A stretch of DNA of 64,000 bases from Pseudomonadota bacterium (GTDB taxonomy: Bacteria > Pseudomonadota > Gammaproteobacteria > JAKAQQ01), in the NCBI GenBank assembly GCA_027320085.1, contig DAHVLZ010000005.1, positions 1 through 64,000 on the forward strand. The letters run 5' to 3'. Below are positions 15,609 through 57,769 of the stretch, piece by piece. The translations under genes and the position numbers were made by a program. Below the pieces are notes generated by a model. It saw only the letters and a list, made by a program, of their open reading frames with translations. It had not been told where the DNA came from and ran no database searches. How positions within the stretch are numbered: the first letter of the stretch is position 1; every line of letters begins with the position of its first letter.

Positions 15609-15963
15609 GCAGAGCGGGCCAGGCAGTCGCTCCATTCGTGGAGAGGAAAGTCCGGGCTCCGCGGATCAAAGCGCCAGGTAACACCTGGGGGGCGCGAGCC
15701 CACGGAAAGTGCCACAGAGAACAGACCGCCGAAGCCATCCGGCTGGCAAGGGTGAAAAGGTGCGGTAAGAGCGCACCGCGCGGCTGGTAACAGTCCGCGG
15801 CACGGAAAACCCCGCTTGGAGCAAGACCAAATAGGGGAGCATGTCGCGCGAGCGACGCGTGTGATCCGCACGGCTCCCGGGTCGGTCGCTAGAGTGCATC
15901 GGTGACGATGCATCGAGAGGCATGACTGCCCTCGACAGAACCCGGCTTATCGGCCCACTCTGC
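15609..15963 (+). ncRNA. rnpB: RNase P RNA, bacterial type A
   Basis: GAGGAAAGTCCGGGC, GGAAAGTGCCACAGA, GGTGCGGTAAGAGCGCACC, GAGCAAGACCAA, ACAGAACCCGGCTTAT; terminal helix GCAGAGCGGGCC/GGCCCACTCTGC. Confidence 0.97.
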
Positions 15964-15999
15964 GTTTCCTCTGATCCTGAAATTGATATGAAAAAACAC

Positions 16000-16073
16000 G
16001 GCGGTTTCAAGTTTGAAGTGCAACAGGTTTGCGGAAACAGGACTCGTCGTTGAAGGGCTCGGGCATGAAGAGC
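16000..16073 (-). mobile_element. IS30-family right-end remnant
   Basis: GGCGGTTTCAAGTTTGAAGTGCAACA end; minus strand LFMPEPFNDESCFRKPVALQT* resembles an IS30 transposase C-terminus with the stop inside the IR. Confidence 0.7.
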
Positions 16074-16174
16074 TATTGATCAGTTGAATCCGCACATATG
16101 ACGGGTCAACCCGCTTGAAATTCGACAGAGCCCAATTTGTGAACTCACCCCATGTCGTCACGGATATGGAGTCT

Positions 16175-16589
16175 CTCTTCACGCTCATTGCGCCCAACTG
16201 TGGCCTGCGGAATGGATGCGCATCTCGAGAACTTCGGCATCGTCTATGACGAGGTTCAAGGCGAGGCACGGCTCGCTCCCGTCTATGATCTTGTCACAAC
16301 AACGGTCGAACTCCCGAAAGACAGCATGGCGCTCACGTTGAACGGCTCGACGCACTGGCCGACCGTCAAGGACCTTCAACGATTGGGCGGAACTCATATG
16401 GGCGGCTCGCCTGCCAGAATTCATGCGATCCTCGAACGCATCGCCGATGCGATATCCCGGGTTGCGTCAGACGTGAGGCAGTACGTCAAGACCCATCCTG
16501 GATTTGCCGAGATCGGCACTCTGATGCTGGATCAATGGCAGGTCGGAGTTGAATCCTCCATCAAGGGACGGGCTCCCGGCATGGGGTAG
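16175..16589 (+). pseudogene. hipA: C-terminal fragment of a HipA-family kinase toxin
   Basis: LRNG|DAHLENFGIVY, RLAPVYDLVTT, MALTLNG; N-terminal part absent, frameshift in the NGDAH motif. Confidence 0.78.
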
Positions 16590-16649
16590 GAGGATGCCCA
16601 ATCCGAGGTGATCCCCTGGGTCCGGTTTGGACGCGAGTCGAGGTGCATC

Positions 16650-16881
16650 GCGTTCGATCTCCCCCAGACCCGGATACGCGTACCGATCGCCAGCGGCCCC
16701 CCTGCACTCGACCCACGCCCACTTCCGCGGCGATCTGCGTGTTGTCCATGCCATCTGCAGAAAGCAGTACCATCTGCCCCCGTCGCACCAATCGCACGCT
16801 GGACATGTTCGATCGCGCCGGGTCCGTCAGCACGTTTCACTCGTCCGTACTCAGGACTACTATCGCAGTGGCAATTCGCAT
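16650..16881 (-). mobile_element. IS630-family transposase N-terminal remnant
   Basis: MRIATAIVVLSTDE*NVLTDPARSNMSSVRLVRRGQMVLLSADGMDNTQIAAEVGVGRVQGGRWR, with an internal stop and a frameshift. Confidence 0.72.
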
Positions 16882-17062
16882 CGTCAGGCGGTGGCGCGAG
16901 AGGAGTGGCTACGGCAGCAACCGGAAGCGGGCACCGGCCCTGCTGACGGACCCACGGGAGGGGGAAATCCCAAGCCTTGGGGTGGTGGTTCTGGTGTTTG
17001 CTGCAAGACCGACGACTTGGCGCAAGGTGCAGGCAGGTAAGAGTTTGGTTTGCGCCGTTCCG

Positions 17063-17080
17063 TGATATATTTGTATATCA
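17063..17080. promoter_or_regulatory. Palindromic operator upstream of relBE
   Basis: TGATATA-TTTG-TATATCA, 25 bp before the antitoxin ATG. Confidence 0.65.
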
Positions 17081-17105
17081 ATTGGCTTTTTGCAGGAGTG
17101 TATCC

Positions 17106-17330
17106 ATGCTTGCTATCCGCCTGCCTCCCGAAATCGAGGAGCGACTGGAGGCCTTGGCGCAGGCTACAGGCCGCACCAAGACCTTTTACGCACGTCAGGC
17201 CATCTTGGAGCACCTGGAGGACCTGGAGGACCTGTACCTGGCCGAGCAACGGCTGATTGAACTTCGCGCCGGGCGGAGTCGCACCTATGCGCTGGACGAG
17301 GTAGAGCGCGATCTTGGCCTGGCAGATTGA
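17106..17330 (+). CDS. relB: RelB/StbD-like RHH antitoxin
   Basis: [47 protein letters not shown]; RBS AGGAG. Confidence 0.88.
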
Positions 17331-17589
17331 GTTCGGGGAAGGAGCCAAGAAAGAACTGGCCAAGCTCGACAAGCCGGTGGCCGGGCGCATCACCTCATTC
17401 CTGCGTGAACGGGTGGCCCCGCTCGATGACCCGCGTAGCATTGGCGAGGCCCTCAAGGGCTCTCAGCTCGGGGATTTTTGGAAGTACCGGGTAGGAGACT
17501 GGCGAATTATTGCCAGCATCGAGGACGTTGCCCTACGGGTTCTTGTGGTTCGCATTGGAAATCGTAGAGAGGTGTACCGAAAGCAGTAG
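17314..17589 (+). CDS. relE: RelE/StbE-family mRNA interferase toxin
   Basis: [44 protein letters not shown]. Confidence 0.9.
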
Positions 17590-17872
17590 GCCACCGGAAG
17601 CACGGGAGCGGTCATCCCTGTGTACCCTCCGACACGCGGTCTCGTCTGCAAGCCAGCAAGAAGGTGCAGACCGGCGCTACAGAGAACCCGCTCTTACCAA
17701 GGCACAGCCGACGGAATCCCGGTACCGGCTACTCGAGCTGAAGGCGTGGATGCGGGAAATCAGCCATGCTGGGAATCGCGGGGCGCAGGGATGGCCGCCC
17801 AGCGTGAGGAAACCGATGAGTCAATCAGTGCGCCGTGGAAACCCAGGTCAGTCATGACCCAAAACAAAATAT

Positions 17873-17908
17873 TGCAAATAGATATACATTTAAGTATATT
17901 TGTTTGTA
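17873..17908. promoter_or_regulatory. AT-rich inverted-repeat operator/promoter of the AbiEii-first operon
   Basis: TGCAAATAGATATAC-ATTTAA-GTATATTTGTTTGTA (12/15 arms). Confidence 0.6.
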
Positions 17909-17928
17909 GTTAGGTCGGGGGTCAAACC

Positions 17929-18807
17929 GTGCAGCGCACGACACCAGAGGAGATCCGTTCCTGGAGCACGGCCGTTCAATTTGCTTTCATCGAGGCTTTG
18001 CCCGCAATCTCGGGGTGGACACCGCGGCAGATGGCCTTTCAGGGAGGCACCTCGCTCAACATGAGCTGGGGTTCCCCGAGATTCTCTGAGGACATCGACC
18101 TGCTGCTCAGCCAGCCGGAATCCGGGCAACTCGAGACGGTCATGGGGCGATGCGTGAACCGGATCAACCAATCACTCGCAATCGATCACCCTGAACTCAC
18201 CGTCAGCCTGCACGGGGGACGGGGTGCCGGCGAGACCGGGGGCCTCGCTGCCTTCGAGCTTCGCGCAGCCCACCCGGATCGCCTGGGCAAGGTCCGCGTC
18301 AAGGTGGAGTTCTGGCGCGTGGACCCATCCTATCTTGATCGCTACGAGACAGAGTTCCGGCTTCCGGTCCGCCAGGGCGAGATCATCACCCGCTCCAGTA
18401 TCCCGATCCCGGCTGCAACCCGGGAGGCAGCTTACGCGGACAAGATCACGGCCTTTGCCACGCGACCCCGGTTCAAGGCCCGGGATGTGTTTGATTTCTG
18501 GTGGCTTGGGAAACAGGTGGCGCTTTCTCCGGAAGCGGCGGCCGGGCGTTTCCTGGATCAGGTCGTGGCCTACACGACCGTGGGCAAATGTGCCCCGGCC
18601 GATGCCTTGCGCGTCTTCCTTCAGACTTACGATCGGGCGCGGATGCTCGATACCGTGAAAAAAGAGCTTCCGCGCTGGCTACCCGAGGAAACGTGGAAAA
18701 GCCTGGGCGATGCAGCCGCGGAGCAGATGGTGGACTATACCCGGCGCACGCTGGAGGCTGTCGCCCAAGCCGCAGAACAGATCGGGGATGGAGCGCCATA
18801 CCCATGA
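17929..18807 (+). CDS. AbiEii/AbiGii-family nucleotidyltransferase toxin (intact)
   Basis: AFQGGTSL, SPRFSEDIDL, KVKVEF-like KVRVKVEF, ADKITAF, KARDVFDFWWL. Confidence 0.85.
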   Translation: MQRTTPEEIRSWSTAVQFAFIEALPAISGWTPRQMAFQGGTSLNMSWGSPRFSEDIDLLLSQPESGQLETVMGRCVNRINQSLAIDHPELTVSLHGGRGAGETGGLAAFELRAAHPDRLGKVRVKVEFWRVDPSYLDRYETEFRLPVRQGEIITRSSIPIPAATREAAYADKITAFATRPRFKARDVFDFWWLGKQVALSPEAAAGRFLDQVVAYTTVGKCAPADALRVFLQTYDRARMLDTVKKELPRWLPEETWKSLGDAAAEQMVDYTRRTLEAVAQAAEQIGDGAPYP

Positions 18808-19409
18808 GCCGACAAAACGCCCGGGATTCCCTCATGGCACTGCCCGCCGTGTTTTCCCTGCCCATGCTCCAGGCTTGTCTGGGCGGAGACGCCAGCAAGG
18901 CAGCGATCTACGCGACCCGATGGCACACCCGCGGCCTGCTCAAACGAGCCGGCCCACGCCTCGGGATCTACTACAACCGGGTCCGCGATCCGCAAGGCTC
19001 GCAGGCCAGCCGTCCCGAGGCAGCGAGGCTCGCCTTCCCGAGCGCCGTGCTGACCGGATCAACCGTGCTTCACGATGCCGGTTGGACTACCCAGATCCCC
19101 CAGGTGATGGAAGTGGCGGTGCTCGCCCGCCGCAGCTACCCGGCCGTGGACGGCCTGTCTTTCCACGGTCGTACTCGGGCCTGGTATGGCCAGGTGCACG
19201 ACTGGATCATCCGTGGCGGGGTCGTGCCCGCACTGAAACCGGCAATGGCCCTGGCCGACGCCTGGGCTGATCCCGAGCTTTGGCACCCGGATCCCGACGA
19301 TCTGGAAGCCCAAGACGTGGACTGGCCCGCGGCCCGGGAGGCCTTCGAGGTCCTGGGCTTGGCCTGGCCGGCAGACTATCCGGAGGTGGGGGTGCCACCT
19401 GCGCCGTAG
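18804..19409 (+). CDS. Putative AbiEi-like antitoxin encoded downstream of its toxin
   Basis: ATGA overlap; LPAVFS...RWHTRGLLKRAGPRLGIYYN (wHTH-like) and SAVLTGSTVLHDAGWTTQIP. Confidence 0.65.
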   Translation: MSRQNARDSLMALPAVFSLPMLQACLGGDASKAAIYATRWHTRGLLKRAGPRLGIYYNRVRDPQGSQASRPEAARLAFPSAVLTGSTVLHDAGWTTQIPQVMEVAVLARRSYPAVDGLSFHGRTRAWYGQVHDWIIRGGVVPALKPAMALADAWADPELWHPDPDDLEAQDVDWPAAREAFEVLGLAWPADYPEVGVPPAP

Positions 19410-19436
19410 CGGTGCCTGCGGGCGAAAGCTTTCGTT

Positions 19437-19594
19437 GAGCAAGACCAGATCGGGGAGCATGACGCGCGAGCGACGTGTGTGATTCGCACGGCTCCCGGGC
19501 CGGTCGTGAGCGTGCATCGGTCATGATGCATCGAGCGGCATGACGGCTCCCGACAGAACCCGGCTGATCGGCCCACCCCGCGTTTCCCCTATCC
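19437..19594 (+). repeat. Degenerate direct copy of the rnpB 3' segment (15819-15977)
   Basis: Hand alignment: 19 mismatches in 154 ungapped nt (about 88%). Confidence 0.95.
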
Positions 19595-19605
19595 CGGTTG
19601 CTTGA

Positions 19606-20367
19606 TCAGTGATGGGCTCCGCTGCAGCGGACCTGCGCCGCGAGCGCCACCTGCACCCGGAGCGAGTGATGGAGGCCCGGGAGAGGAGCGGATACCGGAT
19701 TGGCCACTCCCGCGAAGCTGACGAAGGGTCGCGGCCCGGAAGAATGCCCCACTCGGGTGATCCGGATGTCGAGGAGGTGAGCCCGCGTGTCCCCGAGTGC
19801 GGTGCACGCTTGACGGGCCAGGCCGGCCAGTTCATGGAGTCCCCTGAGCATGAGCCCATGGCGGACCTTCTCACTGCCGGCCGGTTGGTACCGGATGTCG
19901 GAAACCACGAGCCGTTTCTCGAGACGCGTGAGCAGGGCCCCCATCCGTGTGCCGTTCGCGGATTCCAGCGTGAGAACATCGGTGGTCTGCCACTCTGTGA
20001 TTTGTCCGTGCGCCCAGGCCACCGGCCGGGAGGTGATCCCGCTCGTGTGAAAATGAAGCCAAGCTCTTCCCAGATGCCGGATCGTGTCGACCGCCCAGAC
20101 GAACTTGCGGTTCGCAAGGTTTTCGGCCTCCACGGGATTTCCCGCGCGACCGGAGGCATGGAGGTCCACCCGCATGCTGGAGTGGATCCGGGTTGTGACA
20201 TGGATTGAAAAGTGGAGGAGCACTCCCTTTCCGGAGGCTTTGGAGACGGCCGCCCCCGCCACCGGAATGAGGAAAAACGCGGACAGGAAGGCGGACAAAA
20301 GCAGGCACCGCACCCTCCGGCCCGTCGCCGTGCGCCGCCCGAGACTCCCGGCCCGATCCCATCCCAT
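19606..20367 (-). CDS. SIMPL (DUF541)-like periplasmic protein (start uncertain)
   Basis: Signal-like LLLSAFLSAFFLIPVAGA; MRVDLHASGRAGNPVEAENLAN...WA, ITEWQTTDVLTLES, QACTALG. Confidence 0.6.
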   Translation of the reverse strand: MGWDRAGSLGRRTATGRRVRCLLLSAFLSAFFLIPVAGAAVSKASGKGVLLHFSIHVTTRIHSSMRVDLHASGRAGNPVEAENLANRKFVWAVDTIRHLGRAWLHFHTSGITSRPVAWAHGQITEWQTTDVLTLESANGTRMGALLTRLEKRLVVSDIRYQPAGSEKVRHGLMLRGLHELAGLARQACTALGDTRAHLLDIRITRVGHSSGPRPFVSFAGVANPVSAPLPGLHHSLRVQVALAAQVRCSGAHH

Positions 20368-41404: not shown

Positions 41405-41479
41405 GGGCCGGTCTTCCCTCGGGTAGCGCTTCAGTCGTCCATCGGGAGGTACGGAGACCCGGGAAAGCATTTCTTTCTT

Positions 41480-42813: not shown

Positions 42814-42901
42814 GAAGGGGATGAAGCGAGCGGAGGACGGACAGTAATCCGGCCTCCATCTTGGCCGGTGAGTTCTCGCATGCGGCTCTGCAGAGCTGGA
42901 T

Positions 42902-46396: not shown

Positions 46397-47408
46397 GGAT
46401 CCCGGCGGAGCGAAAGCGGGTTCTCCCGTCGATTCAGCGGGGGAGGCGGGGAGCCCCGACACGCCCGCCCCGCCGGAGCCCCCCGCAATCGTCGCCCTTT
46501 GTCTCTCGGATGATGAGGGACGATTCCTGATCCAGAAACGTCCGGCCGGCCGCTCCTGGGCAGGGTTCTGGGAATTTCCCGGGGGCAAGGTGCAGTCCGG
46601 TGAACGGCCCGAGGAGGCCCTCGTGCGGGAGGCCAGGGAGGAACTCGGGATCGAGGTCGGTGAGTGCAGGCGCTTTTGCCGGCAGGCCGGACCGACGGCC
46701 CACGGGCGGGTATCGATCGCTTTTTATGCCGCGCATGTCTTTGCCGGAACCCCCGAGCCCCGGGACGGCCAGACGCTCGCGTGGTCGGGGCCCGATCAAT
46801 TGCGGGCTCGGTCCTGGTTGCCCGCGGATCAGCCCCTGGTGGATGCTCTGGCGGCCGGACCCTGGTGTGGTCTCACTCCCCGGCTCGACCATCCGGATCC
46901 GGATCGCATCGCCACAGGCTTTGCCCGGGCCATCGCCTCGGGTGTGGGCTTTTTCGTGATCCGTCCGGCTCCCGGGACCCGGTGGACCCCCTCCGAGCGG
47001 GAGCCGCTTCGTCTCTGGGCCCGAAGGGAAGGCGTGCGTCTTGCCTTCGGGCACCCGGGAGGAGCCCCCGACGGAGAAGAGGATCTTCACCTCACGTCCG
47101 AATCCGCCCGCTGTCTGGATTGGCGTCCCGTCCCGCACGGGATCCGGCTCGGGATCTCCTGCCATGATCCCATGGAGATCGGACGGGCGAATCGGCTCGG
47201 TGCCGACTATCTCTTCCTGGGTCCGCTCCGACCGACGCCGAGCCATCCCGGGTCATCCGGGCTGGGTTGGGCATGCTGGTCGGAGTGGGCGAGCGCGGCA
47301 CTTTGCCCGGTCTATGCGATCGGGGGCCTCGGCCCCGATGACCTGGATGGGGTCCGTCGGGCCGGCGGTTTCGGGGTGGCTGCGATCCGGGCCTTCTGGG
47401 ACGAGTGA
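46329..47408 (+). CDS. mutT: Nudix (MutT-like) hydrolase fused to a ThiE-like domain (start uncertain)
   Basis: [27 protein letters not shown] Nudix box; [23 protein letters not shown]. Confidence 0.85.
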
Positions 47409-47808
47409 ACGACACACAGGGTGGATGCAGGAGCGGATGGCACCGTGAAAGGCCGATACCTGGCGAATCGGGCAATCTGCACGTTGGGCTGGCCGGGAAA
47501 CCCCACACAAGGCGCCCGGCAGTTCCTGCAAACAGCCTGCCCCCCGCCACACACTGGTCCTCAAACTCTGGGCACAGCCAAGCAAAACACTCCCGACATG
47601 GCCCTGTCTTTGCACCGTCTTCTACCGGATTGACCGGCCTGTCAACCCGGTGGCACAAAAATCGCCTCGGTCTGTCTCACCTGTGCCCCTGAACAACCAC
47701 GATAACCCACCTGGGTCTTCGGCAGGGCCGCCGGCTTACTGTGCTGCGTGACCGAGCAGCTGTTTCACCCGAAAAGCAGGTCTGATCGATCCAGCCCCGA
47801 GCGACCCC

Positions 47809-48180
47809 TCACGCAGCCGCAGCCTTCATGACGAAGTCAGCGCGGATCTCGTCGAACGGTACGCAAAGCTTGCCGTCAGGGGTCTTCTCGACCAGGCTGT
47901 ACTTGATCATGGCAGCCGCGTCGTCGTGCACGCGCCGCACGTCGCGTTCGAGCTCGCGCGCCAAGGCGCGCACTCCGATGGGCCCGGTGCGCTGCAGGCA
48001 CTCAATGAGCTCCCATCGCTTCGGGGTCAGGATCCGAAAGAGCGCCGCCGGGGATTCAAAATCGAAGTGCTCGCCGGCGTATTTGCCGCTCTTCCACGCC
48101 GAGAGAAATCCTGCCCGGGCAGCCTCAAGGCCCTCGTTCGCCTTTCGGATATGGATGATGGCGATGCGTCGCTGGGTCAT
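47809..48180 (-). CDS. HVO_A0114-like HTH protein, antitoxin candidate
   Basis: FESPAALFRILTPKRWELI, GVRALARELERDVRRVHDD, VPFDEI. Confidence 0.8.
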   Translation of the reverse strand: MTQRRIAIIHIRKANEGLEAARAGFLSAWKSGKYAGEHFDFESPAALFRILTPKRWELIECLQRTGPIGVRALARELERDVRRVHDDAAAMIKYSLVEKTPDGKLCVPFDEIRADFVMKAAAA

Positions 48181-48461
48181 CGGTTCCTCCTCTGCGCCAC
48201 GTCGCGCAGAAAATCATTGAGCAGTTTCTCCGGGTTCTCGAATCGGTAGGGTTCCTCGCGGGAACCCTCGTGTCGATGATCGCCCTTCGGGCGCTCGTTG
48301 TCGTAGCCAACCTCACGCCGGCCCGCCTGCCCGTAGAACAGACGGTACTTGTATGGATGCCGCGAGCCGGTGACAGGTTTCGGCACCCGCCAGATCACCA
48401 TCTCGAGGATCGCACCATCGTCGAAGTCTTCGCGATAGTGATACACGAGGATGGCAAGCAT
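48177..48461 (-). CDS. DUF6516 (TumE-like) toxin
   Basis: IWRVPKPVTGSRHPYKYRLFYG, GYDNERPKGDHRH, LLNDFLRDV. Confidence 0.8.
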   Translation of the reverse strand: MLAILVYHYREDFDDGAILEMVIWRVPKPVTGSRHPYKYRLFYGQAGRREVGYDNERPKGDHRHEGSREEPYRFENPEKLLNDFLRDVAQRRNR

Positions 48462-48467
48462 ATTGTC

Positions 48468-48508
48468 GATTGTGCCAACGCAGCGGGGGGGTTGTCAAGC
48501 ATGACAAC
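48468..48508 (-). promoter_or_regulatory. Promoter/operator of the DUF6516 operon
   Basis: Palindrome GTTGTCA-AGCA-TGACAAC (48491-48508) containing -35 TTGACA on the minus strand; CACAAT -10 ends 6 bp before the ATG. Confidence 0.6.
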
Positions 48509-48677
48509 ACAGGTGTTAGCGCAAAGCCGTCATGTCCCTTTTCGGTTTCAGGAGAGGTCATGGCGAGGCGGGGCATTTAAGAGGTCAAGGGCCGAGTGGA
48601 CGAGACGCAGGATCCGTGGAGCTGCGGTACGGTCGGCCAGGCCCGCTGTTAATATGACCATGGCCCGGCGTTTTGCC

Positions 48678-48706
48678 AAGACATTTAATTGACATTGTTT
48701 TGACAC
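48678..48706 (+). promoter_or_regulatory. Pho-box-like 11-bp direct repeats
   Basis: AAGACAT-TTAA-TTGACAT-TGTT-TTGACAC upstream of a phosphoesterase gene. Confidence 0.5.
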
Positions 48707-48746
48707 GGCGCCGCGTTGCTGTACGCGTCTGGGCCAAGCCTCCTGT

Positions 48747-51728
48747 GTGAGGAAAATCCACCGAGGAAACTTTCCGTCGAGCATCAACGAACGGCTCACA
48801 GGAGGGTGCATGTTGGGAAATCAGAAAGCTTGGTTGAGGCACGGCTCGAGACGAGTCAGAATACGGCTGGTCCTTGCCGCATTAACTGTGGTGTTTTTCT
48901 ACCCGGGCGCGTCCGAAGCGGTGCCCGGGCCCGCTTTGGTGGCACAGCCCGTAACGGTGACCCCTTTGCTGCGCAAACGATACACCGGTACGCTTCCGAC
49001 TTGGCGTGAGGTCACCCCGGTTGGGACCCTGGTCAGCACCCCGAACTTCCCCACCCGGGTGGCCGTCCGGGGGAGGCGGATTGCGGTCTTGGCCAATGGT
49101 GCAACCCCCTTTCAGACGATTACCTGGTATTCCCTCCATCTGGATCGCCTCACGCGCATCGCGGCATTTAGCAAGGTTGCCCCCTCCCACCCGGTGGTTC
49201 GGGCCAGTTCGGGCACGAGTGGAGTGGCCCTGAATCCCCGGCATACGGGCCCGGCGGGTACCGTTTACACGACCAACCAGTCAGCCGCCATCCGCAAACG
49301 CGAGGCCCAAGCCACCTTGCGTGCTGAGGCCAACCCGAAGACGGTTCCCACCACGATCGTCTCACAGAGTGATTGGTTCCAGGGTCTCGTGGCGGGTCCC
49401 CAGGGCCTCTGGTATGCCGCCGGAGGTGCCTCGGATCAGGTCATGGCCCTGCGCGTCAGGGGAAGTCGGGTCTCCATCGTCCATCGCTATCCCCTCCAAT
49501 GGCAGCCTTTCCCCCCAAGCCAATACCCCTATACCTATCAGGGCGATCATGAACAGAGGCCATGGCTCTACTACCCTGACTCCTTGGTGGTGGGACCGCA
49601 TGAGCAGCACCTCTATGTCACGGGGATGCTGGCCAACAGCCTTGCACGGATCGATTTCGCCGGTGGCAAAACCCAGTACCTCAATGTCGGCCCGTATCCT
49701 TTTGCGGTCACGCTCGCAGATCTTGGCCGCCGTCTCGTTGTGAGCGACTGGGCCGGCAGTGGAGTCACGGTTGTGGATCGGCGGAGTTTCCAGGTTCTGG
49801 GAAGGATTGCCAGTGGGCCGCCCGTAGGTCCCCAGAGCGTCGCGGCGGGCGTGCATCCGACGGCTCTGGTTCCCGTCCCGGGAACCCCGGATGTGTGGGT
49901 CGCTGATGCCAATGATGATGCCGTGGTGGAACTGGATGTCCGGACCCTGCGACCTGTGCGGGTCATCGACGATGCGCCCTATCGAGGAGCCCCTCCCGGG
50001 AGCTATCCGGATGGCTTGGCCGTCTCCCAGGGCAGGCTTTTCGTCGCGAATGCGGGCAACGATGATGTGGCTGTGTATGACGAGAAGACCGGGAAGCGCC
50101 TGGGCCTGATTCCGACCGCCTGGTACCCGACGGCCCTCACCCTTGTCCGCGACCGGCTTTATGTCACCGCTGGCAAGGGCTTTGGGACCGGCCCCAACCT
50201 CGAGTGGCAATATATCGGAAACATGATGCATGGCCTGCTGCAGCAGGTTTCCCTGCGACATCTCGCAGCCCGTCTCCCCCACTGGACGCAGAGGGCCTTG
50301 CGGGACGATGGCTTCACCCCGAGGCAGCGGGAGCGGTTGCAGGCGGAGAATGCCCAAACCACCCGGTTCCTGCGCAAACATATCCACTACGTGGTATTCA
50401 TCCTGCGGGAAAACAAGACCTTTGATGAGGATCTCGGGGACTACCGGGCGGCGGGTCGGTGGGCCGATCCCCGCCTCGATTTGTATGGTCCCAAGGAGCT
50501 CCCCAATCTCTACTCCTGGGCCGCCCACAATGTCCTCTTCGCCAATTTCATGGTCGATGGGGAGGTCACGGCCCAGGGGCACCAGTGGGTGGACGGGGCC
50601 TCGGATTCTGATGTCGTGCAGCGTCTCTGGTCGGAGTACTACTCCAATCGAGGATTGCTCTGGAACGCGGGACCCGGCGGAAATGCCAGCCTCGATCCGA
50701 AGGCTCCCGGCAGTCACGACCCCTACCAGTACCGCGGCAGGAACCTGGGAGATTTCACCAACCCTTGGATCAGCTATCCAGAACGCCTCTATCTCTTCAA
50801 CGATTTTCTGCAGCACCAGGTGAGCTTTGAGGACTTCGGGGAAGATCTCGCCCGTCGGCGGGATGGCGTGCTCCGCAGTGCGCTATTGGCCCACGTCGAT
50901 CGCACCTATCCCGGCTGGAATCTGATGTTGCTCGACAAAACCCGGGTCGCCGCGGCCATTCGCTGGCTGAAAGCGCATCCCGGCAAGGCTTTTCCGCACT
51001 TTATCTACATCTGGATTCCGGACGATCACACCGCCGGCTTGGCTCCTTGCTATTACACGCCGGACTACTATGTTGCACAGAATGATCATGCAACAGCCGT
51101 GTTCCTCCACTATCTGTCGACCACTCCCCAATGGAGGCATATGGTTGTTTTCCAGACGGAAGACGATGCCCAATCCGGGGCGGACCATATCAATGCCCAC
51201 CGAAGCTTCGCACTCGCCATGGGGCCTTGGGTGAACCCCGGGGATCTGGACACGGCCCCCGACTCGCAGGTCAACATCGTCCGCACCATCGAGAGCATCT
51301 TTGGGTTACCACCCATGTCCCAGTGGGATGCCAACGCCCGGATTCTCTCCGGCATCTGGAGAAACACGCCCCGGCCCGATCCTGTTCCGGTGTATCCCAT
51401 CGGGGTCCCCGTACAGTTCAATCCGGGGATCTGCAGCCGGCATCTCCTCCTTCGGAGGGAGGCAGGCGTGACCGGGCATATCCTGACACCGGCCTGGCTC
51501 AGGGCGCATACCGATCCCCATGGGAAAACCTTCCATCTGGCATCCGATGAGCAGTACACCCCCACCACCCTGCTCAAGGTCGCAGGACCCGAACAACTCA
51601 AGCAGGAGTGGATCGCCAGCAAAGGGGTGAAGAGCTACGAACGGTTCATGGCGTACCTCCAGCACTACGCGGCTGCACATGGCAGGACTCTCGCGAGCTA
51701 TGAGGCAAACGAGGGGAAGCTCAAATGA
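48747..51728 (+). CDS. Exported YVTN/YncE beta-propeller plus phosphoesterase (alkaline-phosphatase-like) protein; true start may be 48810
   Basis: Signal-like RRVRIRLVLAALTVVFFYPGASEA; LFVANAGNDDVAV, GLIPTAWYPT, ILRENKTFD, PDDHTAG, EDDAQSGADHINAHRS. Confidence 0.88.
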   Translation: MRKIHRGNFPSSINERLTGGCMLGNQKAWLRHGSRRVRIRLVLAALTVVFFYPGASEAVPGPALVAQPVTVTPLLRKRYTGTLPTWREVTPVGTLVSTPNFPTRVAVRGRRIAVLANGATPFQTITWYSLHLDRLTRIAAFSKVAPSHPVVRASSGTSGVALNPRHTGPAGTVYTTNQSAAIRKREAQATLRAEANPKTVPTTIVSQSDWFQGLVAGPQGLWYAAGGASDQVMALRVRGSRVSIVHRYPLQWQPFPPSQYPYTYQGDHEQRPWLYYPDSLVVGPHEQHLYVTGMLANSLARIDFAGGKTQYLNVGPYPFAVTLADLGRRLVVSDWAGSGVTVVDRRSFQVLGRIASGPPVGPQSVAAGVHPTALVPVPGTPDVWVADANDDAVVELDVRTLRPVRVIDDAPYRGAPPGSYPDGLAVSQGRLFVANAGNDDVAVYDEKTGKRLGLIPTAWYPTALTLVRDRLYVTAGKGFGTGPNLEWQYIGNMMHGLLQQVSLRHLAARLPHWTQRALRDDGFTPRQRERLQAENAQTTRFLRKHIHYVVFILRENKTFDEDLGDYRAAGRWADPRLDLYGPKELPNLYSWAAHNVLFANFMVDGEVTAQGHQWVDGASDSDVVQRLWSEYYSNRGLLWNAGPGGNASLDPKAPGSHDPYQYRGRNLGDFTNPWISYPERLYLFNDFLQHQVSFEDFGEDLARRRDGVLRSALLAHVDRTYPGWNLMLLDKTRVAAAIRWLKAHPGKAFPHFIYIWIPDDHTAGLAPCYYTPDYYVAQNDHATAVFLHYLSTTPQWRHMVVFQTEDDAQSGADHINAHRSFALAMGPWVNPGDLDTAPDSQVNIVRTIESIFGLPPMSQWDANARILSGIWRNTPRPDPVPVYPIGVPVQFNPGICSRHLLLRREAGVTGHILTPAWLRAHTDPHGKTFHLASDEQYTPTTLLKVAGPEQLKQEWIASKGVKSYERFMAYLQHYAAAHGRTLASYEANEGKLK

Positions 51729-51826
51729 GGAGGAATCCCGCCCCCACCCAAGGAGCCGGTGGCTCCGGTCCCTTATGGCGGGTGCGATTCAAACTGATGT
51801 GGAGTAGGCTCAATGGATACCCCCTA

Positions 51827-51930
51827 TCCTGGGTCCGCTCCAACCGACGCCGAGCCATCCCGGGTCATCCGGGCTGGGTTGGGCATGCTGGTCGGAGGGG
51901 GCGAGCCGTGCGCTTTGCCCGGTCTATGCG
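51827..51930 (+). repeat. Direct copy of a 3'-proximal segment of the MutT-like gene (47215-47318)
   Basis: Hand alignment: 98/104 identical, ungapped. Confidence 0.95.
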
Positions 51931-52102
51931 CTCCCGCCTCGAATTCTTGCCGGCCCCTCCCGCCGGCAACTTCGCCCAAAGCCGCCGCAGCCGGTTCGGA
52001 TCCACGAGATGCACCGGGTCCGGCTCGATCTCCTGGAGCTCCAGCGGACCCCGAATCGTGCTGCCCCATTTGCGTCCGGTTTTATTGAAGATGGCGGCCA
52101 TG

Positions 52103-52125
52103 CTTGCATTTTGATAAAATGCAAG
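52103..52125. promoter_or_regulatory. Palindromic operator of fitAB/vapBC
   Basis: CTTGCATTTT-GAT-AAAATGCAAG with perfect arms. Confidence 0.7.
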
Positions 52126-52153
52126 AGTCTATATCAATACGAGGTCTTGAAAG

Positions 52154-52408
52154 ATGCCATCGGTGACCGTCCGGAACGTGCCCGACGAGGTCCATCGCGC
52201 CATCCGCGTGCGAGCCGCCCAACATGGCCGCAGCATCGAGGCCGAAATGCGCGACATCCTGGAATCTGCGGTGAAGCCGGAAGGCCGGCTCAAGCTGGGT
52301 TCGCTCTTGGCCGAGATCGGCCGCAAGGTCAAGCTGACCGATGAAGAGTTCGCTCTCTTCGAGAGCGCGCGAAACAAAACCCCGGCCCGTGCTGCGAGCT
52401 TTGAATGA
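52154..52408 (+). CDS. FitA-like Arc/RHH antitoxin
   Basis: VTVRNVPDEVHRAIRVRAAQHGRSIEAEMRDIL. Confidence 0.88.
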   Translation: MPSVTVRNVPDEVHRAIRVRAAQHGRSIEAEMRDILESAVKPEGRLKLGSLLAEIGRKVKLTDEEFALFESARNKTPARAASFE

Positions 52409-52833
52409 TCCTGCTCGATACCAACGTGATTTCAGAGCCACTGCGCCCGGTGCCCGAGGCCCGCGTTGTCGAATGGATCGACGCGCAAATCCTGGAAACG
52501 CTCTACCTGTCGGCCATGAGCGTGGCCGAACTGCGCGCCGGCGTGGCGCTGCTGCCGGCTGGAAAGCGCCGGTCCCACCTGCATGAGCATCTCGAAAAAC
52601 GGGTGTTGCCCATGTTCGCCGGTCGCGTGCTGCCGTTCGACCTGGCTTGCACGGATGCCTATGCCGGACTGCTCGCGAAGGTTCGCGCAGCAGGTCGGGG
52701 CATCGAGACGGCCGATGCCTGCATTGCGGCCGTTGCCATCGCCAACCGGTTTATCCTTGCGACACGTGACATACGCCCCTTCCAGGTGGCTGACCTGAAC
52801 CTGACCCTTATCGACCCCTGGGAGGACGCATAG
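52405..52833 (+). CDS. vapC: VapC/FitB PIN-domain toxin
   Basis: MILLDTNVISE, AELRAG, ADACIAAVA, LATRD, IDPW. Confidence 0.92.
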   Translation: MILLDTNVISEPLRPVPEARVVEWIDAQILETLYLSAMSVAELRAGVALLPAGKRRSHLHEHLEKRVLPMFAGRVLPFDLACTDAYAGLLAKVRAAGRGIETADACIAAVAIANRFILATRDIRPFQVADLNLTLIDPWEDA

Positions 52834-53647
52834 GGCTCCGGACACCCCATCAGGATCGGGAAAACACCCACCAGAGTCCGGTCCCCGGTGCCCAAAGAGT
52901 TGACGCACGGAAAACCCGTCGGTAGGGTTGGCCGGGATTGGCCAGCTACTTCTGATGCTGATGCTGGGGTTGGCAGGGGGCGAGGTTGCCATCGATTCAG
53001 TGGATTTTGTTGGTAGATGAACCCGGGTGTTTTGCAGGCGGCCAGCCGGATGTCCCGGTAGCTTCGACAATCGGGCCGAGACACAGCCGTCGCGCACCCG
53101 CCCGGACCTTGAGTGCGATTAGGAGACCCGCCGGGCTCTCCCGCCAAAAAGGGAACCGCACCCCGTTTGCCGAACGGTTCAAGTTCAATAGGGGATCCGG
53201 GAACCCCGATACCGACTGGAAAGTCTGTACGGGAGTTGTGCGCCATACCGCCTGTAGGCCACCCCGGCAAAAGTGCTTGGGTGGCGGAACCCGTCTGGAG
53301 AAAACCTCGTGCCCATCGTGGAGGGTCCTGCACCTGATGACAATGAACGGATACTCTACTGCAAGCGCATCCACGATACCGAGGCGGATAACCCGGCGTT
53401 TGACCTTACTTCGTGAGCCGCATTTTCGTGAGATCCGGCTGATGATGTGCCTCCTCTTCCTGTAGACGATGTCGCCCCGCAAAAGCGCCGGATCGCCCGG
53501 AGGAGGTAGCGAATCCAGCCACGCTCAAATCTGAGGGCTGCCGTGAAGAAGGGCATCGGCTTGCCGGGCCCCACTTTGGGAAAGGAGTTTGAGAAACCAC
53601 GGCAGGATCCGGAGCGAGCCAAAGCGCTCGAGTGAATGCCATCCTTC

Positions 53648-54181
53648 TCAGGGCCTGCCCTTGAGCAGTTTCAGCTCACGCTTGAGATCCCGCTTCTTCC
53701 AGTGTGGGACCTCAATCGCTTCGATCACGCTGATCCCCGGCCATCGGGGAGCGAACGGGCCATCCAGTGAACCCGTAGCTCCTCTAGGTGCTCTCGGTCC
53801 GTGTAGCACACACGCATGGGGTCCCCACCACGGCGTGCAACGCTTCACTTTCCGCCTTCTCAGCTTCAACATCGCGCTCGGGATCCGCGAGTGCCCGAAA
53901 GGCACGAGCAAGAGCCCGTTGGCTCCGAGCCGGGCCGCCTCGCGGCGCAGTTTCCGGAGGAGCGAGCTGTCATACGACAAGTCCGAGTACCCACCGAAAC
54001 CGCTCCCATCCAGCTTCGCGACCACCACGTAATGCTTGGGGACGAGCGGCGGCGTAAAGATCATGACCTGGTTCGCCCGGATCGCCGGCCGGACCGGTCC
54101 CACGATGCGGGGCGTTGAGGCACAGCCCGCAAGCACCAGCAGGATGCCGTACCGGCCCAGGCTCGCGAAGCGCCGGATCAT
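53648..54181 (-). CDS. Hypothetical lipoprotein
   Basis: Lipobox LLVLAG-C; KLRREAARLGANGLLL resembles YbjQ-like folds. Confidence 0.7.
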   Translation of the reverse strand: MIRRFASLGRYGILLVLAGCASTPRIVGPVRPAIRANQVMIFTPPLVPKHYVVVAKLDGSGFGGYSDLSYDSSLLRKLRREAARLGANGLLLVPFGHSRIPSAMLKLRRRKVKRCTPWWGPHACVLHGPRAPRGATGSLDGPFAPRWPGISVIEAIEVPHWKKRDLKRELKLLKGRP

Positions 54182-54188
54182 GACCCAC

Positions 54189-55145
54189 TCACCGGGGCAG
54201 GTCTCCGGCCACAAGAAGCCGGAGCGTCAGGGCAACGGCCCGGGCAATGTCCGGGGTGGGTTGGTCCTTGGCCAATGGGCCATAGGTCAGCCGGGCCGCC
54301 AGCGGGTGATGGCCGTGGATATGATACAAAAGCCAGGACGGCATTTGATGATTCCTCTCCAGAGTTCGACAATACACCCACCAGGACGGATCACGAGACC
54401 GATCTACTATAGACTCCCACCAATAGACCTCCACGATCCGGAACCAGGTGGGGTGCCCATCCCTCCGGAGGGGGGAGAACCGGTCCCCGCGAACGGACTC
54501 CACACTCTTCTGGATCATGCTTTTATTTGAGTCGGTACGCAGCACCGTTACCGAAACAACCCGCCCCGAGCGGCCGACCCGGCCCACGAGCCAGACATAG
54601 GAGTTCACGGGACCGAACTCGCGACCACACCACCCCCGATGGAGTTCTTTCACCCGATCAGTTGTGGCCGGAAAACCGCCGGAACCGGGGATCAGAAAAC
54701 GGACCGCAATGCCCCGACCGGGAGACCCAAAGCCCGCCCCCTGAGCCGCATGGATCCCGGACAGACGCAAGGTCCCCACTTGAGGCACCGGTACCCCCAC
54801 CGCCCGAGCCAGAAGGGATCCTCCGGAGATCCTGAGCCGTGGGGGGTGGACCACACTTTCCGCACGTTGGATGACCGGCCCGACCGGATGCTCGCGCGAG
54901 ATCTTCGGCCGATGTGCAAGCCAGTGGACCGGGGTCGGACGGGGAAGCACTTGAGGCCGTGCCGAAGGACGCGAACTCCAGAGCCAAAGGCCAAAAGCCC
55001 CGAGCAAGAGGACTTCCACCCCGGCCGCCATGGCCCATTGAACCGCCAGCCTGCCCAATCCTGATCCCAACGGAGGCCCGGCCGAATCAGACCCCTCCTC
55101 GATCCCACGAGGAGGAATGACCAACTCTCTCTTCCTTCCCGGCAA
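54189..55145 (-). CDS. Membrane-anchored protein with a TonB-C-like domain (start uncertain)
   Basis: TM WAMAAGVEVLLLGAFGLWLW, Pro-rich linker, VGRSGRVVSVTVLRTDS...VRGDRFSPLRRDGHP. Confidence 0.55.
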   Translation of the reverse strand: MPGRKRELVIPPRGIEEGSDSAGPPLGSGLGRLAVQWAMAAGVEVLLLGAFGLWLWSSRPSARPQVLPRPTPVHWLAHRPKISREHPVGPVIQRAESVVHPPRLRISGGSLLARAVGVPVPQVGTLRLSGIHAAQGAGFGSPGRGIAVRFLIPGSGGFPATTDRVKELHRGWCGREFGPVNSYVWLVGRVGRSGRVVSVTVLRTDSNKSMIQKSVESVRGDRFSPLRRDGHPTWFRIVEVYWWESIVDRSRDPSWWVYCRTLERNHQMPSWLLYHIHGHHPLAARLTYGPLAKDQPTPDIARAVALTLRLLVAGDLPR

Positions 55146-55169
55146 GGGGATGTGACATTCAGGTAATCC

Positions 55170-56072
55170 TCAGCCGCCCGAACACTTCTTGGTAAGAGCA
55201 CAGAAGGTTTCTGACTTCAAGATTTGCCAGCCTGAGTTGCCCCCTTGGCTCAAATCTAGACTCACCATACCAGCCTTAAAACCGCCCAAAGAAACTCCGA
55301 CATCTGTAACACCGGCTTGACCCAGTCTCTGATTACCGATTATCGCCGCATCAAGCTTTTGTTCCAAGGTAGTGGTTGTGGCAATTTGCTGCTTCACGTT
55401 GAAGCTGGCCGGTGGTGTCAGGAAATCGACCGCCGTCGTGCTGACCGGTTCTCCCGAGTCGTTCTCTGGCTCGCCATTGGCACCATATCCGCTGTCCAAG
55501 ACAAAAGAAAAAACCAGTGGATTGGTTCCCGTGACCTGATATTCGGCGCTTGATCCGTCAGGGAAAGCCACGATCGTCACAAAGCCAAGCGGAGGATTTG
55601 CGGATGCCAGGTTGCTGTTGAGCCAAGTGCTCACAGCCGAGGCCTGGGAGGTGCCGGTAAAGGTGTTGGCCACGCTCGTAGGGATGTGAACCAGCAACGA
55701 GGGTGCCAGTCTTGAAAAGGTATTCTGTTCCTCACCGGTCGTCCCCGTCAGGTTGTCCCAGCTGATATCCCAGGTACAGGGGGCCCCATCCGCAGTCGAA
55801 ATGCAGGGGCCGTGGGCGGTGATCATCGAAGCCAGTAACTCATCCGGATTGAAGATCAAAAACATCACCTCCATTTTTTCTCCCGTCGAGGTATCGAAGT
55901 AGGCTCCCGATGGAATATTGCCCTGGGCATAGTCCTGGAACTGGGGCTCGGTCGAGCAGCTGGTACAAATGTCGGTAGCGACGTTGTCGGCCGCTTGGGC
56001 TGAGCTGATCGACCAGAGGGCCAGGATCAGGCCGAAGAGGGAAATCAGAGAAAAAATCACGTGCTTTTTCAC
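55170..56072 (-). CDS. Hypothetical secreted protein
   Basis: Signal peptide ending SAQA, RBS AAGGAG, CTSC, Ser/Thr-rich, VAFPDGSSAEY; visibly lower GC. Confidence 0.8.
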   Translation of the reverse strand: MKKHVIFSLISLFGLILALWSISSAQAADNVATDICTSCSTEPQFQDYAQGNIPSGAYFDTSTGEKMEVMFLIFNPDELLASMITAHGPCISTADGAPCTWDISWDNLTGTTGEEQNTFSRLAPSLLVHIPTSVANTFTGTSQASAVSTWLNSNLASANPPLGFVTIVAFPDGSSAEYQVTGTNPLVFSFVLDSGYGANGEPENDSGEPVSTTAVDFLTPPASFNVKQQIATTTTLEQKLDAAIIGNQRLGQAGVTDVGVSLGGFKAGMVSLDLSQGGNSGWQILKSETFCALTKKCSGG

Positions 56073-56214
56073 GACATAATCTCCTTTTGGTCCAGTGACA
56101 TTTTCTGTCTTGAGGCCGCTGCCTCAACCATTCGCTCGACCATACCCCCGAGCTTTTGTCAAACGGTCGGGAGACGGTGCTTCCCTCCACAATCGCGCGC
56201 ACTGGGGCTGCGCT

Positions 56215-56262
56215 TCATGCCTCATCAACCCGGGTGGAAATGGGACGTGCTCCTAGTTCATC
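56215..56262 (-). repeat. Degenerate direct copy of the yacG 3' end (57539-57586)
   Basis: 16-nt identical core ATCAACCCGGGTGGAA, 32/39 over the aligned block, stop codon at the same offset (STRVDEA* vs STRVDRR*). Confidence 0.75.
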
Positions 56263-56386
56263 TGCGCACTGTCTATGGGCCGAAGTCCGGCGGCTATGTC
56301 TTCTTCCGGTTTGGTCGATCCAGCTGACCTGTGGGGGACTCTCCGATCCATTGGGTCTTGGCCACTTGATAATTGATATCAAAAAA

Positions 56387-56421
56387 GCCACAATTGTGAT
56401 CAGGATGAATCCAATTGTGGC
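56387..56421. promoter_or_regulatory. Inverted-repeat operator at the start of the MNT gene
   Basis: GCCACAATTG-N15-CAATTGTGGC with perfect 10-bp arms. Confidence 0.6.
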
Positions 56422-57022
56422 CAAAGCCCCTGATCCCTCCCCCCTGCGGGTCCTGCTGGGCGAATATCATTTGCGCCTGCTTGGGCTTCTGCTGTTGCGG
56501 CCTGAAGAGGATTTCCACCTCAGGGAGATCGAACGGCTAACGCGGGTGCCGGCCAGCTCCGCCCGCCGTGAGTTACAGCGGTTCGCCGCTGCCGGATTGG
56601 TGCAGTCGCGTCGGGTCGGAAATCAGGTCCGTTATCAGGCGGTTCGCAGTTGCGTTGTTTATCACGAATTGGCCAGCATGTTGCGCAAAACCGTCGGCAT
56701 GGCTGATTTGCTACGCGAGGCCTTAACCCCCCTGGAGGGGAAGATCAGGACCGCGTTTCTGTTCGGTTCGGCTGCACAAGGCAGAGAAGGACCGTACAGC
56801 GACATTGATTTGATGGTGATTGGCAATGTGAGCTTTGATGACGTCGTGCAAGCCGTACATGGAGTACAAGGAAAGCTGGGCAGGGAGGTGAATCCGGTTA
56901 TCTTGCGGCAGCGGGATTTCAAGGCGAAACTCGAGCGCCAGGACGCTTTTATTCACCGCGTGATGGCCGAACCCAAAATCGCGATCTTCGGAGTACCAGG
57001 TGAGTTTGGAAAACCTGCTTAA
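56405..57022 (+). CDS. HTH plus minimal nucleotidyltransferase (MNT) antitoxin
   Basis: FHLREIERLT, RVGNQVRYQA, FLFGSAAQG, SDIDLMVIG, LGREVNP. Confidence 0.85.
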   Translation: MNPIVAKAPDPSPLRVLLGEYHLRLLGLLLLRPEEDFHLREIERLTRVPASSARRELQRFAAAGLVQSRRVGNQVRYQAVRSCVVYHELASMLRKTVGMADLLREALTPLEGKIRTAFLFGSAAQGREGPYSDIDLMVIGNVSFDDVVQAVHGVQGKLGREVNPVILRQRDFKAKLERQDAFIHRVMAEPKIAIFGVPGEFGKPA

Positions 57023-57443
57023 GACCGGCCAGATCAAGGGGCAGGCTCCAAATAAACAGCAGGTCGCCAAGCTGCTGGCTGCGGCTGCTCGAAATCTCCG
57101 CGACGCTCATGTGAAGGCAAACAGTCCCGAGACGCGCTTCGACGTTGCCTATAAGGCCATGATGCAATCTGCGCTCACTGCCATGCAGGCATGCGGTTAT
57201 CAACCGGATGCAAAACGTCCAGGTCACCATGCAACCGTGATCCAGTCCTTGCCCCTGACTTTGGGGATCGACAAAGAGCGCATCCTCGTGCTCGACAAAT
57301 TGCGCATGAAACGCAATGCCTCTGACTATACCGGCGATGACCTGGATGAAGTGTCCGTAAAGGCCTGTATCACCGAAGCTCAAAAGTTGTTGGCTGGGGT
57401 GAAGGTCTGGCTCAAAATGACCCACCCAGATCTTGTTGATTGA
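57000..57443 (+). CDS. HEPN-domain protein, toxin candidate
   Basis: AARNLRDA, RFDVAYKA, GHHATVIQSL, RMKRNASDY (Rx4Y variant of the HEPN motif). Confidence 0.78.
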   Translation: MSLENLLKTGQIKGQAPNKQQVAKLLAAAARNLRDAHVKANSPETRFDVAYKAMMQSALTAMQACGYQPDAKRPGHHATVIQSLPLTLGIDKERILVLDKLRMKRNASDYTGDDLDEVSVKACITEAQKLLAGVKVWLKMTHPDLVD

Positions 57444-57538
57444 AAGTGCATCCAGCGAATATTCTTTGACCCTATGTGAAGGAAACGGCAGGTCTCTTTT
57501 CTCGCAAGGTCAAGAGTCTGCACTTTGGGAGAATCCCC

Positions 57539-57769
57539 TCAGCGGCGATCAACCCGGGTGGAAGGGGGGCTTGCTGCCGGTTCATCCGGCGTGTCCTCCC
57601 CAGTGGATGCAGGATCCGGCTCGACGGGAATGCGGTGGGTTTCGGAGAACCACCCCCAGAGATCAACCAGGCGGCAGCGCTCGGAACAGAACGGCCGGGC
57701 CGCGGGATCCGTCGAATCGCCGGGTGCTTTTCCGCAGGTCGGGCAGCGGGGGTGGAGGGAGTCGGCCAC
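57539..57769 (-). CDS. yacG: DNA gyrase inhibitor YacG
   Basis: CPTCGK...RPFCSERCRLVDLWGW..E.HRIP. Confidence 0.9.
   Translation of the reverse strand: MADSLHPRCPTCGKAPGDSTDPAARPFCSERCRLVDLWGWFSETHRIPVEPDPASTGEDTPDEPAASPPSTRVDRR

Follow-up and report, generated by a model that had tools for sequence, protein, structure and literature searches.

How do small gene cassettes that carry no integrase come to lie directly behind the 3' ends of core genes, each followed by a second, decayed copy of the gene end behind which it sits? The question is raised by the first 64 kb of contig C21 (C21:1-64000 of DAHVLZ010000005.1, hereafter the window) in G000 (GCA_027320085.1), a gammaproteobacterial genome bin of 2.14 Mb in 47 contigs, with ~62% G+C and rated 96% complete. 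The backbone of the window runs from lipid and glycosyltransferase genes through rnpB, the RNase P RNA gene, and the dcw cluster from mraZ-rsmH to ftsZ, and on to lpxC, an M23 peptidase gene, secA and a NUDIX/ThiE-like gene (called 'MutT-like' in a first-pass annotation made from the letters alone), with yacG-zapD-coaE-pilD-pilC-pilB following on the opposite strand. The gaps between these core blocks are occupied by toxin–antitoxin (TA) and further accessory genes, and it was the direct repeats around some of them that the first-pass annotation had singled out.

Here we report that three of these blocks, and at least eight loci in the genome, are insertions bounded by a duplicated piece of the host target, with TA or Fic rather than restriction–modification (R-M) genes as cargo. 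The cassettes are 1.3–4.5 kb long, mostly of the addiction type (type II/IV TA pairs, Fic/Doc), and are found immediately beyond the 3' ends of housekeeping genes; the duplicated target varies from 40 to 233 bp, with possibly a whole gene duplicated at murB, and no insert contains an intact transposase. At all three loci examined in this respect (rnpB, NUDIX/ThiE and Nramp), comparison with congeners shows the duplicated sequence to be that of the host lineage rather than a foreign att arm. We consider it probable that the islets are cases of 'insertion with long target duplication', that is, integrase-free illegitimate insertions with staggered junctions that have passed two selective filters.

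The comparisons below use three genomes of the same genus (congeners), G001, G002 and G003, of which G002 is collinear with the window, and the family relatives G004, G005 and G007. Genes were called with a simple hexamer caller of our own and named via Pfam and NCBIfam. The significance of each repeat was judged by its Smith–Waterman score against 300 dinucleotide shuffles per pair.

The islet behind rnpB

The longest repeat in the window brackets an islet behind rnpB:

15611-15965, plus strand: rnpB (RNase P RNA, bacterial class A), intact; Rfam RF00010, 307 bits over the full model (1-367)
15819-15977, plus strand: repeat copy A, native-like and similar to the G002 rnpB, comprising the 3' 147 nt of rnpB and 12 nt downstream
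15978-19436: islet of 3.46 kb, not in G002 (empty site G002:C14)
16212-16589: HipA_C fragment (Pfam)
16624-16885, minus strand: fragment of an IS630/DDE_3-type transposase gene
17106-17330: RHH antitoxin (Pfam)
17314-17589: ParE toxin, paired with the RHH antitoxin (Pfam)
18031-18807: AbiEii (Pfam)
18804-19409: open reading frame (ORF)
19437-19594, plus strand: repeat copy B, a decayed 3' part of rnpB that continues into the native downstream flank

The two copies are as the first-pass annotation had described them, 87.4% identical over 159 bp with a score of 117 that none of the 300 shuffles equalled. G002 lacks 15970-19436 behind its rnpB and has one copy of the target: 150 bp of its single rnpB end align with both window copies, and its downstream flank resumes from copy B. 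The distance from rnpB to mraZ is 0.3–1 kb in G004, G005 and G007. Copy A is about as similar to G002 as is the remainder of the gene, while copy B is divergent throughout; it scores 49 bits against the Rfam model, versus 93 bits for the matching part of copy A, with changes at conserved unpaired or single-stranded positions and in a GNRA loop. Copy B is thus a decaying pseudo-copy. Both copies nonetheless have in common a derived GCGA loop where G002 reads TTCG.

A second partial rnpB was found in one of 151 class genomes (one per family), namely in G000 itself. Two genomes of this set that are flagged as unpublished, G047 and G149, each gave one ordinary rnpB match, and the conclusion is independent of both. 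We therefore rejected the idea that rnpB is a common integration target, there being no such case in the 150 other class genomes; as far as the literature accessible to our search goes, nothing related was found on rnpB as an integration site of integrase-bearing genomic islands either. A cmscan alignment of 19400-19436 to the 5' end of the rnpB model was taken as a fortuitous hairpin, because the left flanks have no similarity.

Upstream of rnpB, at 14716-15412, an AAA_14 ATPase ORF (126 aa) and a DUF4143 tail ORF (89 aa) are apparently one split gene. The same flanks in G002:C14 (L011) enclose ~10.6 kb of different content, including Mrp/complex-I/hydrogenase-like genes, a PIN pair and insertion sequence (IS) remnants; this spot is thus variable too.

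The NUDIX/ThiE-yacG hot spot

The other two repeats lie at either end of the stretch between the NUDIX/ThiE gene and yacG:

46590-47408, plus strand: NUDIX and TMP-TENI (ThiE-like) gene (Pfam; start codon uncertain)
47215-47321, plus strand: NUDIX/ThiE repeat copy A, inside the 3' part of the gene
47409-51826: cargo block, not in G002
47809-48180, minus strand: HVO_A0114 antitoxin-like gene (Pfam/NCBIfam)
48177-48461, minus strand: TumE toxin, paired with the HVO_A0114-like gene (Pfam/NCBIfam)
48888-51728: ORF of 946 aa, beta-propeller/phosphoesterase-like (Pfam/NCBIfam)
51827-51933, plus strand: NUDIX/ThiE repeat copy B, an orphan 107-bp gene piece truncated at both ends
51934-52065, minus strand: 3' fragment of a gene family with full-length copies on C44 and C9, abutting copy B
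52154-52833, plus strand: FitA-like RHH antitoxin and PIN toxin (Pfam), also in the same hot spot of G003
56224-56263, minus strand: yacG repeat copy B, a decayed 3' end
56417-57022, plus strand: MarR-like and nucleotidyltransferase (MNT-type) ORF, cargo (Pfam)
57000-57443, plus strand: second cargo ORF, without a family match
57539-57811, minus strand: yacG, intact (Pfam YacG, 2e-18), with repeat copy A at 57548-57587

The NUDIX/ThiE repeat proposed earlier is confirmed at 93.5% identity over 107 bp (score 93, equalled by none of 300 shuffles). Many states common to its two copies differ from those in G001, G002 and G003, and it is this sharing of lineage-specific states between copies A and B, set against the congeners, that shows the host's own target to have been duplicated; the att arms of a foreign element, to whose attL/attR geometry the first-pass annotation had likened such repeats, would not carry them. 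The seven differences between the copies fall at codon positions 2, 1, 1, 2, 3, 3 and 1, the derived third-position changes being in copy A and the derived first- and second-position changes in copy B. Orthologues of the gene are 320 aa long in G001 and 304 aa in G002.

At yacG the repeat is real but smaller than first claimed: 32 of 40 positions (80%) are identical, and the score of 25 was reached by none of 300 shuffles (mean 14.1, SD 1.5), although it did not attain E<=1e-4 in the genome-wide scan described below. All three repeats of the window thus have the order that had been ascribed to them, with an intact gene, then cargo, then a decayed far copy.

G002 has 412 bp between the NUDIX/ThiE gene and yacG, compared with 10.2 kb in the window (47409-57576 is missing). 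In G003 the same spot holds HipBA-like genes and a FitAB pair, and in G001 unknown genes and IS remnants. The spot is a hot spot: G000, G001 and G003 each have their own cargo here, and G002 has next to none. No NUDIX/ThiE duplication was found in G001 or G003, which carry other cargo here, and no conserved native intergenic sequence was detected between G002 or G003 and the window. For NUDIX/ThiE the empty-site comparison holds in part, G002 being nearly empty but copy B an orphan piece; the yacG site is occupied by other cargo in the relatives. The last 141 bases of G001:C46 are identical to the first 141 of G001:C12, so that the two contigs join across the hot spot, with ~3.9 kb of cargo in G001.

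A 300-aa gene within the spot (55170-56072, minus strand) was considered as a hidden recombinase and rejected; it has no family match, and its product, which carries a signal peptide, is one of a family of secreted proteins. This family is multi-copy (C22:19505-20336, C8:118082-118731, C44:8419-8687 and many congener copies), its members having the N-terminal 60 residues in common and differing downstream. The fragment at 51934-52065 that abuts NUDIX/ThiE copy B is the 3' end of a related gene.

Islets without a detectable duplication

Two further islets of the window had been credited with fainter versions of the same repeats:

37084-39034: islet behind ftsZ, between ftsZ and lpxC, not in G001 or G002
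37847-38752: dprA (DprA/Smf) in the ftsZ islet, the sole copy in the genome
41412-43623: islet behind the M23 peptidase gene, not in G002 and partly in G001
42112-42813: weak AbiEii-like ORF in the M23 islet

These faint repeats do not rise above chance. The ftsZ score of 17 was reached by six of 300 shuffles and the M23 score of 14 by 85 of 300. Relative to G002 both islets are true insertions, but without a detectable duplication. Contigs from three sequencing runs (X2-X4, depth 6–12) connect 41411 directly to 43670, so a variant or close relative without the M23 islet coexists in those samples.

Further cases in the genome and its congeners

Elsewhere in G000 the same footprint recurs at unrelated genes. 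On C30, the convergent genes for Nramp and a thioredoxin-like DUF255 protein are separated by a 1.5-kb Fic insert within a 181-bp duplication that spans both stop codons. The site is empty in G002 and G003, and the two copies have G000-specific states in common even in the poorly conserved intergenic stretch. An ABC ATPase gene and ppa, again convergent, enclose an HTH_17/PIN_3 pair (a PIN TA pair) and DUF5615, flanked by a 51-bp duplicate of the end of ppa; this site is empty in G001, G002 and G003. At murB an internally deleted second copy (its 3' and 5' pieces; repeats of 185+250 bp) lies beyond a HigBA-like pair, and the site is empty in G001 and G003. A hicAB pair has a deleted copy of brnA on one side and a 3' fragment of that gene on the other. 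Its repeats, at 97%, and those of the C15 pair, at 94%, mark the youngest inserts. Two candidates, MNT/HepT on C45 and hicAB on C21, were set aside as empty-site cases since the relatives offer no clean empty site. The relatives, in short, show empty sites rather than integrase-bearing elements: no integrase-bearing counterpart was found at the repeat-flanked sites in G001–G003.

Relatives of the cargo occur at other places with repeats of their own. A relative of the PIN pair in G003:C15 sits at a different locus, where G000 is empty, within a 60-bp repeat at 85% identity, and a relative of the Fic gene in G001:C59 occupies a third locus with a repeat of ~122 bp at 81%. Homology among the related cassettes covers the genes only and excludes the insert ends. 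Related cargo at differing loci, with separate repeats and no conserved ends, means that each insertion creates its duplication afresh, on many targets and in several genomes. The claim that the pattern is recurrent and bound neither to one target nor to a recombinase in cis is thus borne out.

On C45 (114498-116762) a gene for a Sel1-repeat protein of 719 aa has a direct repeat of 65 bp (75% identity) on either side, and may be another single-gene insert with a target duplication.

Direct repeats across the genome

A genome-wide self-BLASTN of G000 yielded more cases and a strong bias towards direct orientation, with 91 direct versus 3 inverted matches at distances of up to 20 kb; when the scan was run in chunks at higher sensitivity, the counts were 182 versus 7. 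After removal of within-gene matches, matches with both copies interior to genes, gaps of <150 bp and identities of <70%, the chunked scan retained 32 direct and 3 inverted matches. The former comprise one tRNA–tRNA pair, nine matches on the repeat-gene contigs C12 and C23, eight of a tRNA-Leu family on C45 and 14 others, which fall at ~10 loci; one of the three inverted matches is a tRNA pair, leaving 14 versus 2. A pair of positions on C7 (31495 and 41486) was rejected as an island, as these are tRNA-Thr and tRNA-Ala. Eight of the 12 remaining repeat-bounded intervals contain a Pfam TA or Fic gene, which gives an impression of enrichment.

The repeat edges have nothing in common. Homology stops sharply at them in all seven pairs tested, and no k-mer motif is shared by repeat edges or by cargo starts and ends (the best 6-mer occurs in three of eight cases), which agrees with the earlier statement that the sites have no common core sequence. 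Apart from the brnA fragment, no repeat has a third copy elsewhere in the genome. There are virtually no close tandem duplications that lack cargo: the 93 direct-repeat matches at spacings of <500 bp comprise 88 within one gene, two between adjacent paralogues and three short repeats outside coding sequence. The genome scan contained no terminal inverted repeats at E<=1e-4, although no search specific to them was made. The short fixed-length duplication, terminal inverted repeats and transposase that mark a transposon insertion do not describe these islets.

A possible route of entry

A sequence of three events would account for these footprints. An illegitimate insertion would first join the cassette to the chromosome at two junctions that are staggered on the target, through template switching during replication or a two-ended join that bridges sister copies, and because of the stagger the stretch between the junctions would come to lie on both sides of the insert. 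Selection would then retain only events that leave both flanking gene ends whole, producing a bias towards 3' ends and convergent gene pairs in which the gene-adjacent copy stays functional and the other decays. Finally, direct repeats of 50–200 bp would invite RecA-mediated loss of the insert, so that cassettes able to kill the cells that lose them would persist until the repeats diverge, enriching for TA and Fic genes. Survival of the flanking gene ends and addiction, which would block loss through the repeats, are the two filters that we infer. If this is so, active toxins should protect repeat-flanked inserts from loss, and the junctions of fresh insertions should be staggered.

As to the host, it has pilB, pilC and pilD and one dprA, which lies within the ftsZ islet. 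Neither a ComEC domain nor Ku was found in the bin, 96% complete as it is, and free-DNA uptake and Ku-dependent end joining are therefore poorly supported here; this weakens the competent-host candidate of the first-pass annotation.

Several observations weigh against insertion with long target duplication as the account of these islets. The insertion step is inferred rather than observed. Two of the five window islets, those behind ftsZ and M23, have no duplication, which means that long-duplication insertion is not the sole route in. NUDIX/ThiE copy B is an orphan truncated at both ends, for which the model requires a later deletion; the yacG repeat is short; and the rnpB islet contains a transposase fragment. 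G000 also has classical tRNA-targeting islands, at tRNA-Val with an integrase and at tRNA-Leu with four partial copies, so integrative-element decay occurs in this genome as well. The enrichment for TA genes is an impression gained from 12 intervals, the gene calls come from our own crude caller, and the genome is a metagenome bin of 47 contigs for which all read evidence consists of Logan contigs from a single study.

The presence of those islands bears directly on the reading of the islets as decayed or trans-mobilised integrative elements, in which the repeats would be attL and attR with a replacement gene end, and the integrase would have been lost or be encoded elsewhere, as with cis-mobilizable elements (CIMEs) and cargo-only satellites. 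The geometry matches integration of the tRNA, tmRNA and icd type, and some of the cargo is decayed (HipA and transposase fragments). The first-pass annotation was right that the window has no integrase, although the rnpB islet does carry its transposase fragment: all 11 PF00589 and three PF00239 matches of the genome lie outside C21:1-64000, with tyrosine recombinase genes on C30, C27, C18 and C7 that might act in trans. At tRNA-Leu(CAA) (C45:91380-114419) four partial tRNA copies starting in the anticodon loop (93.5% over 77 bp) bound a defence array of 23 kb, made up among others of Fic, Schlafen/AlbA, a type III-like Res/Mod pair, SMODS with its S_4TM effector and AbiEi/AbiEii; C45 has no PF00589 match, only a weak integrase-N-like ORF (92007-92969) beside the tRNA. 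These repeats, however, are tRNA-borne and begin at a canonical sublocation, unlike those of the rnpB, NUDIX and Nramp type, where both copies have host-lineage states that a foreign attP arm would not have, even in a poorly conserved intergenic stretch. The islets also have edges without a motif, unrelated targets, inserts of just 1.3–4.5 kb without an integrase remnant, related cargo at other loci with other duplications and no conserved ends, and, at rnpB, a second partial copy that is confined to G000 among the 151 class genomes. We regard decayed integrative elements as an unlikely source.

Host-lineage repeats are what would be expected of a Campbell-type single crossover, in which a circle carrying the cassette and a piece of the host locus integrates by RecA-dependent recombination and leaves that piece on both sides. 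Repeats of 40–233 bp are within the working range of RecA recombination, TA modules are typical of plasmids, and C45 encodes a relaxase and a coupling protein. Such a crossover leaves unexplained how a piece of host came to be in the first circle at five or more unrelated loci, and why related cassettes at different loci have locus-specific duplications; no third repeat copy exists in the genome other than the brnA fragment, and without ComEC the uptake of free DNA is doubtful. We hold it to be quite unlikely. The proposal that short tandem duplications of gene 3' ends pre-existed as landing pads is close to refuted and in our judgement very improbable, as all congener empty sites seen hold one target copy and the 93 close direct repeats resolve into the within-gene, paralogous and short noncoding matches listed above. 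Extremely improbable, finally, is an artefact of assembly or binning. The genome is a 47-contig bin, and Logan contigs end where the two NUDIX/ThiE copies match exactly for 55 bp, as expected at k=31. The copies, on the other hand, differ by 6–20% and are thus not collapsed or duplicated k-mer paths. The cargo-to-repeat junctions are reproduced with 0–3 differences in four separately assembled runs, all mine-drainage metagenomes from one study that hold window DNA and one of them possibly the source of the genome, and the same footprints occur in separately assembled congeners. Contigs of these runs tile 38001-58000 with 0–3 differences per long piece and contain 94–99% of sampled words from the rnpB region (15400-19900).

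Extending insertion with long target duplication beyond these genomes, one may ask whether a general recombinase-free duplicative pathway is a main entry of addiction cassettes (TA, Fic, R-M) into small genomes. Template switching at gene 3' ends or convergent junctions would be a candidate for it, with post-segregational killing rather than DNA cleavage giving persistence. We offer this tentatively, as the less probable outcome; if true, the decaying second copies would be a datable record of each acquisition.

Comparison with known systems

Insertion with long target duplication was reportedly described for R-M genes by Nobusato et al. in 2000, and in the 25 years since its description the insertion mechanism has never been explained. 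A later survey, whose screen looked for R and M genes as cargo, describes such insertion for R-M units 'with no other mobile elements', takes as criteria repeats of >30 bp, an insert of <20 kb and one uninterrupted copy of the target in a related genome, notes that start or stop codons are frequently covered by the repeats such that the target gene stays intact, and suggests DNA double-strand breakage by the restriction enzyme as the shared property (Furuta, Abe & Kobayashi, 2010; PMC2853133). The term 'toxin-antitoxin' does not occur in its text, and where papers examined contained both that term and 'long target duplication', the latter stood in their reference lists alone.

The islets described here resemble those R-M units. 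They are small inserts (<20 kb) without mobility genes, the transposase fragment behind rnpB being the exception, with addictive, selfish cargo and repeats of variable length that exceed 30 bp throughout: 159, 107 and 40 bp in the window, 181 bp at Nramp, 51 bp at ppa and 185 and 250 bp at murB. Both repeats align to a single-copy target, with empty sites for rnpB (G002), Nramp (G002, G003), ABC/ppa (G001–G003) and murB (G001, G003), and the stop codon is often spanned, leaving the gene whole. They differ in their high density, with at least five loci in 2.1 Mb for which an empty site serves as control, in that one target is an RNA gene, rnpB, and in that the cargo holds no R and M genes; instead it comprises TA and Fic/Doc genes (ParE/RHH, AbiEii, TumE/HVO_A0114, MNT-like, Fic, PIN and HigBA-like). 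Most of these toxins (PIN, HepT, HigB-like, Fic, AbiEii) we take not to be DNA cutters, which argues that what unites TA/Fic with R-M cargo is addiction and not the cutting of DNA.

With integrase islands, CIMEs and the cargo-only elements of tycheposons, the islets have in common an intact gene, cargo and a displaced partial end, and arrays that can accrete. Unlike integrase islands they have no integrase, no shared core, unrelated targets and repeats of the host lineage; of the hallmarks of such islands or CIMEs, namely an integrase or shared att, a recurrent target (sampled here as one genome per family) and an element-derived arm, none was found. Entries of the TIGER/Islander resource must have an integrase gene and measure at least 2 kb (PMC12424338), and such islets are thus excluded by design; in annotation, any island finder that needs an integrase and a minimum size will miss them. 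Horizontal-transfer hot spots between core genes, said to have been described by Oliveira, Touchon & Rocha in 2017, are matched by the NUDIX/ThiE-yacG spot, whose cargo varies by genome, although the hot-spot concept does not predict target duplications.

For the entry of TA islets free of mobile genetic elements into chromosomes, one recent study proposes homologous recombination at flanking core genes (Belot et al., 2026; PMC13617665); 'direct repeat' does not occur in that text. The islets of G000 are similar in being very small TA-only islands at high-turnover core-gene spots, addictive and subject to later erosion. The recombination route leaves no duplication, whereas a subset here has long target duplications. 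With TA and Fic cassettes enclosed by long duplications of host targets at many unrelated genes, and this in several congeners, some of such islets must have entered by another way.

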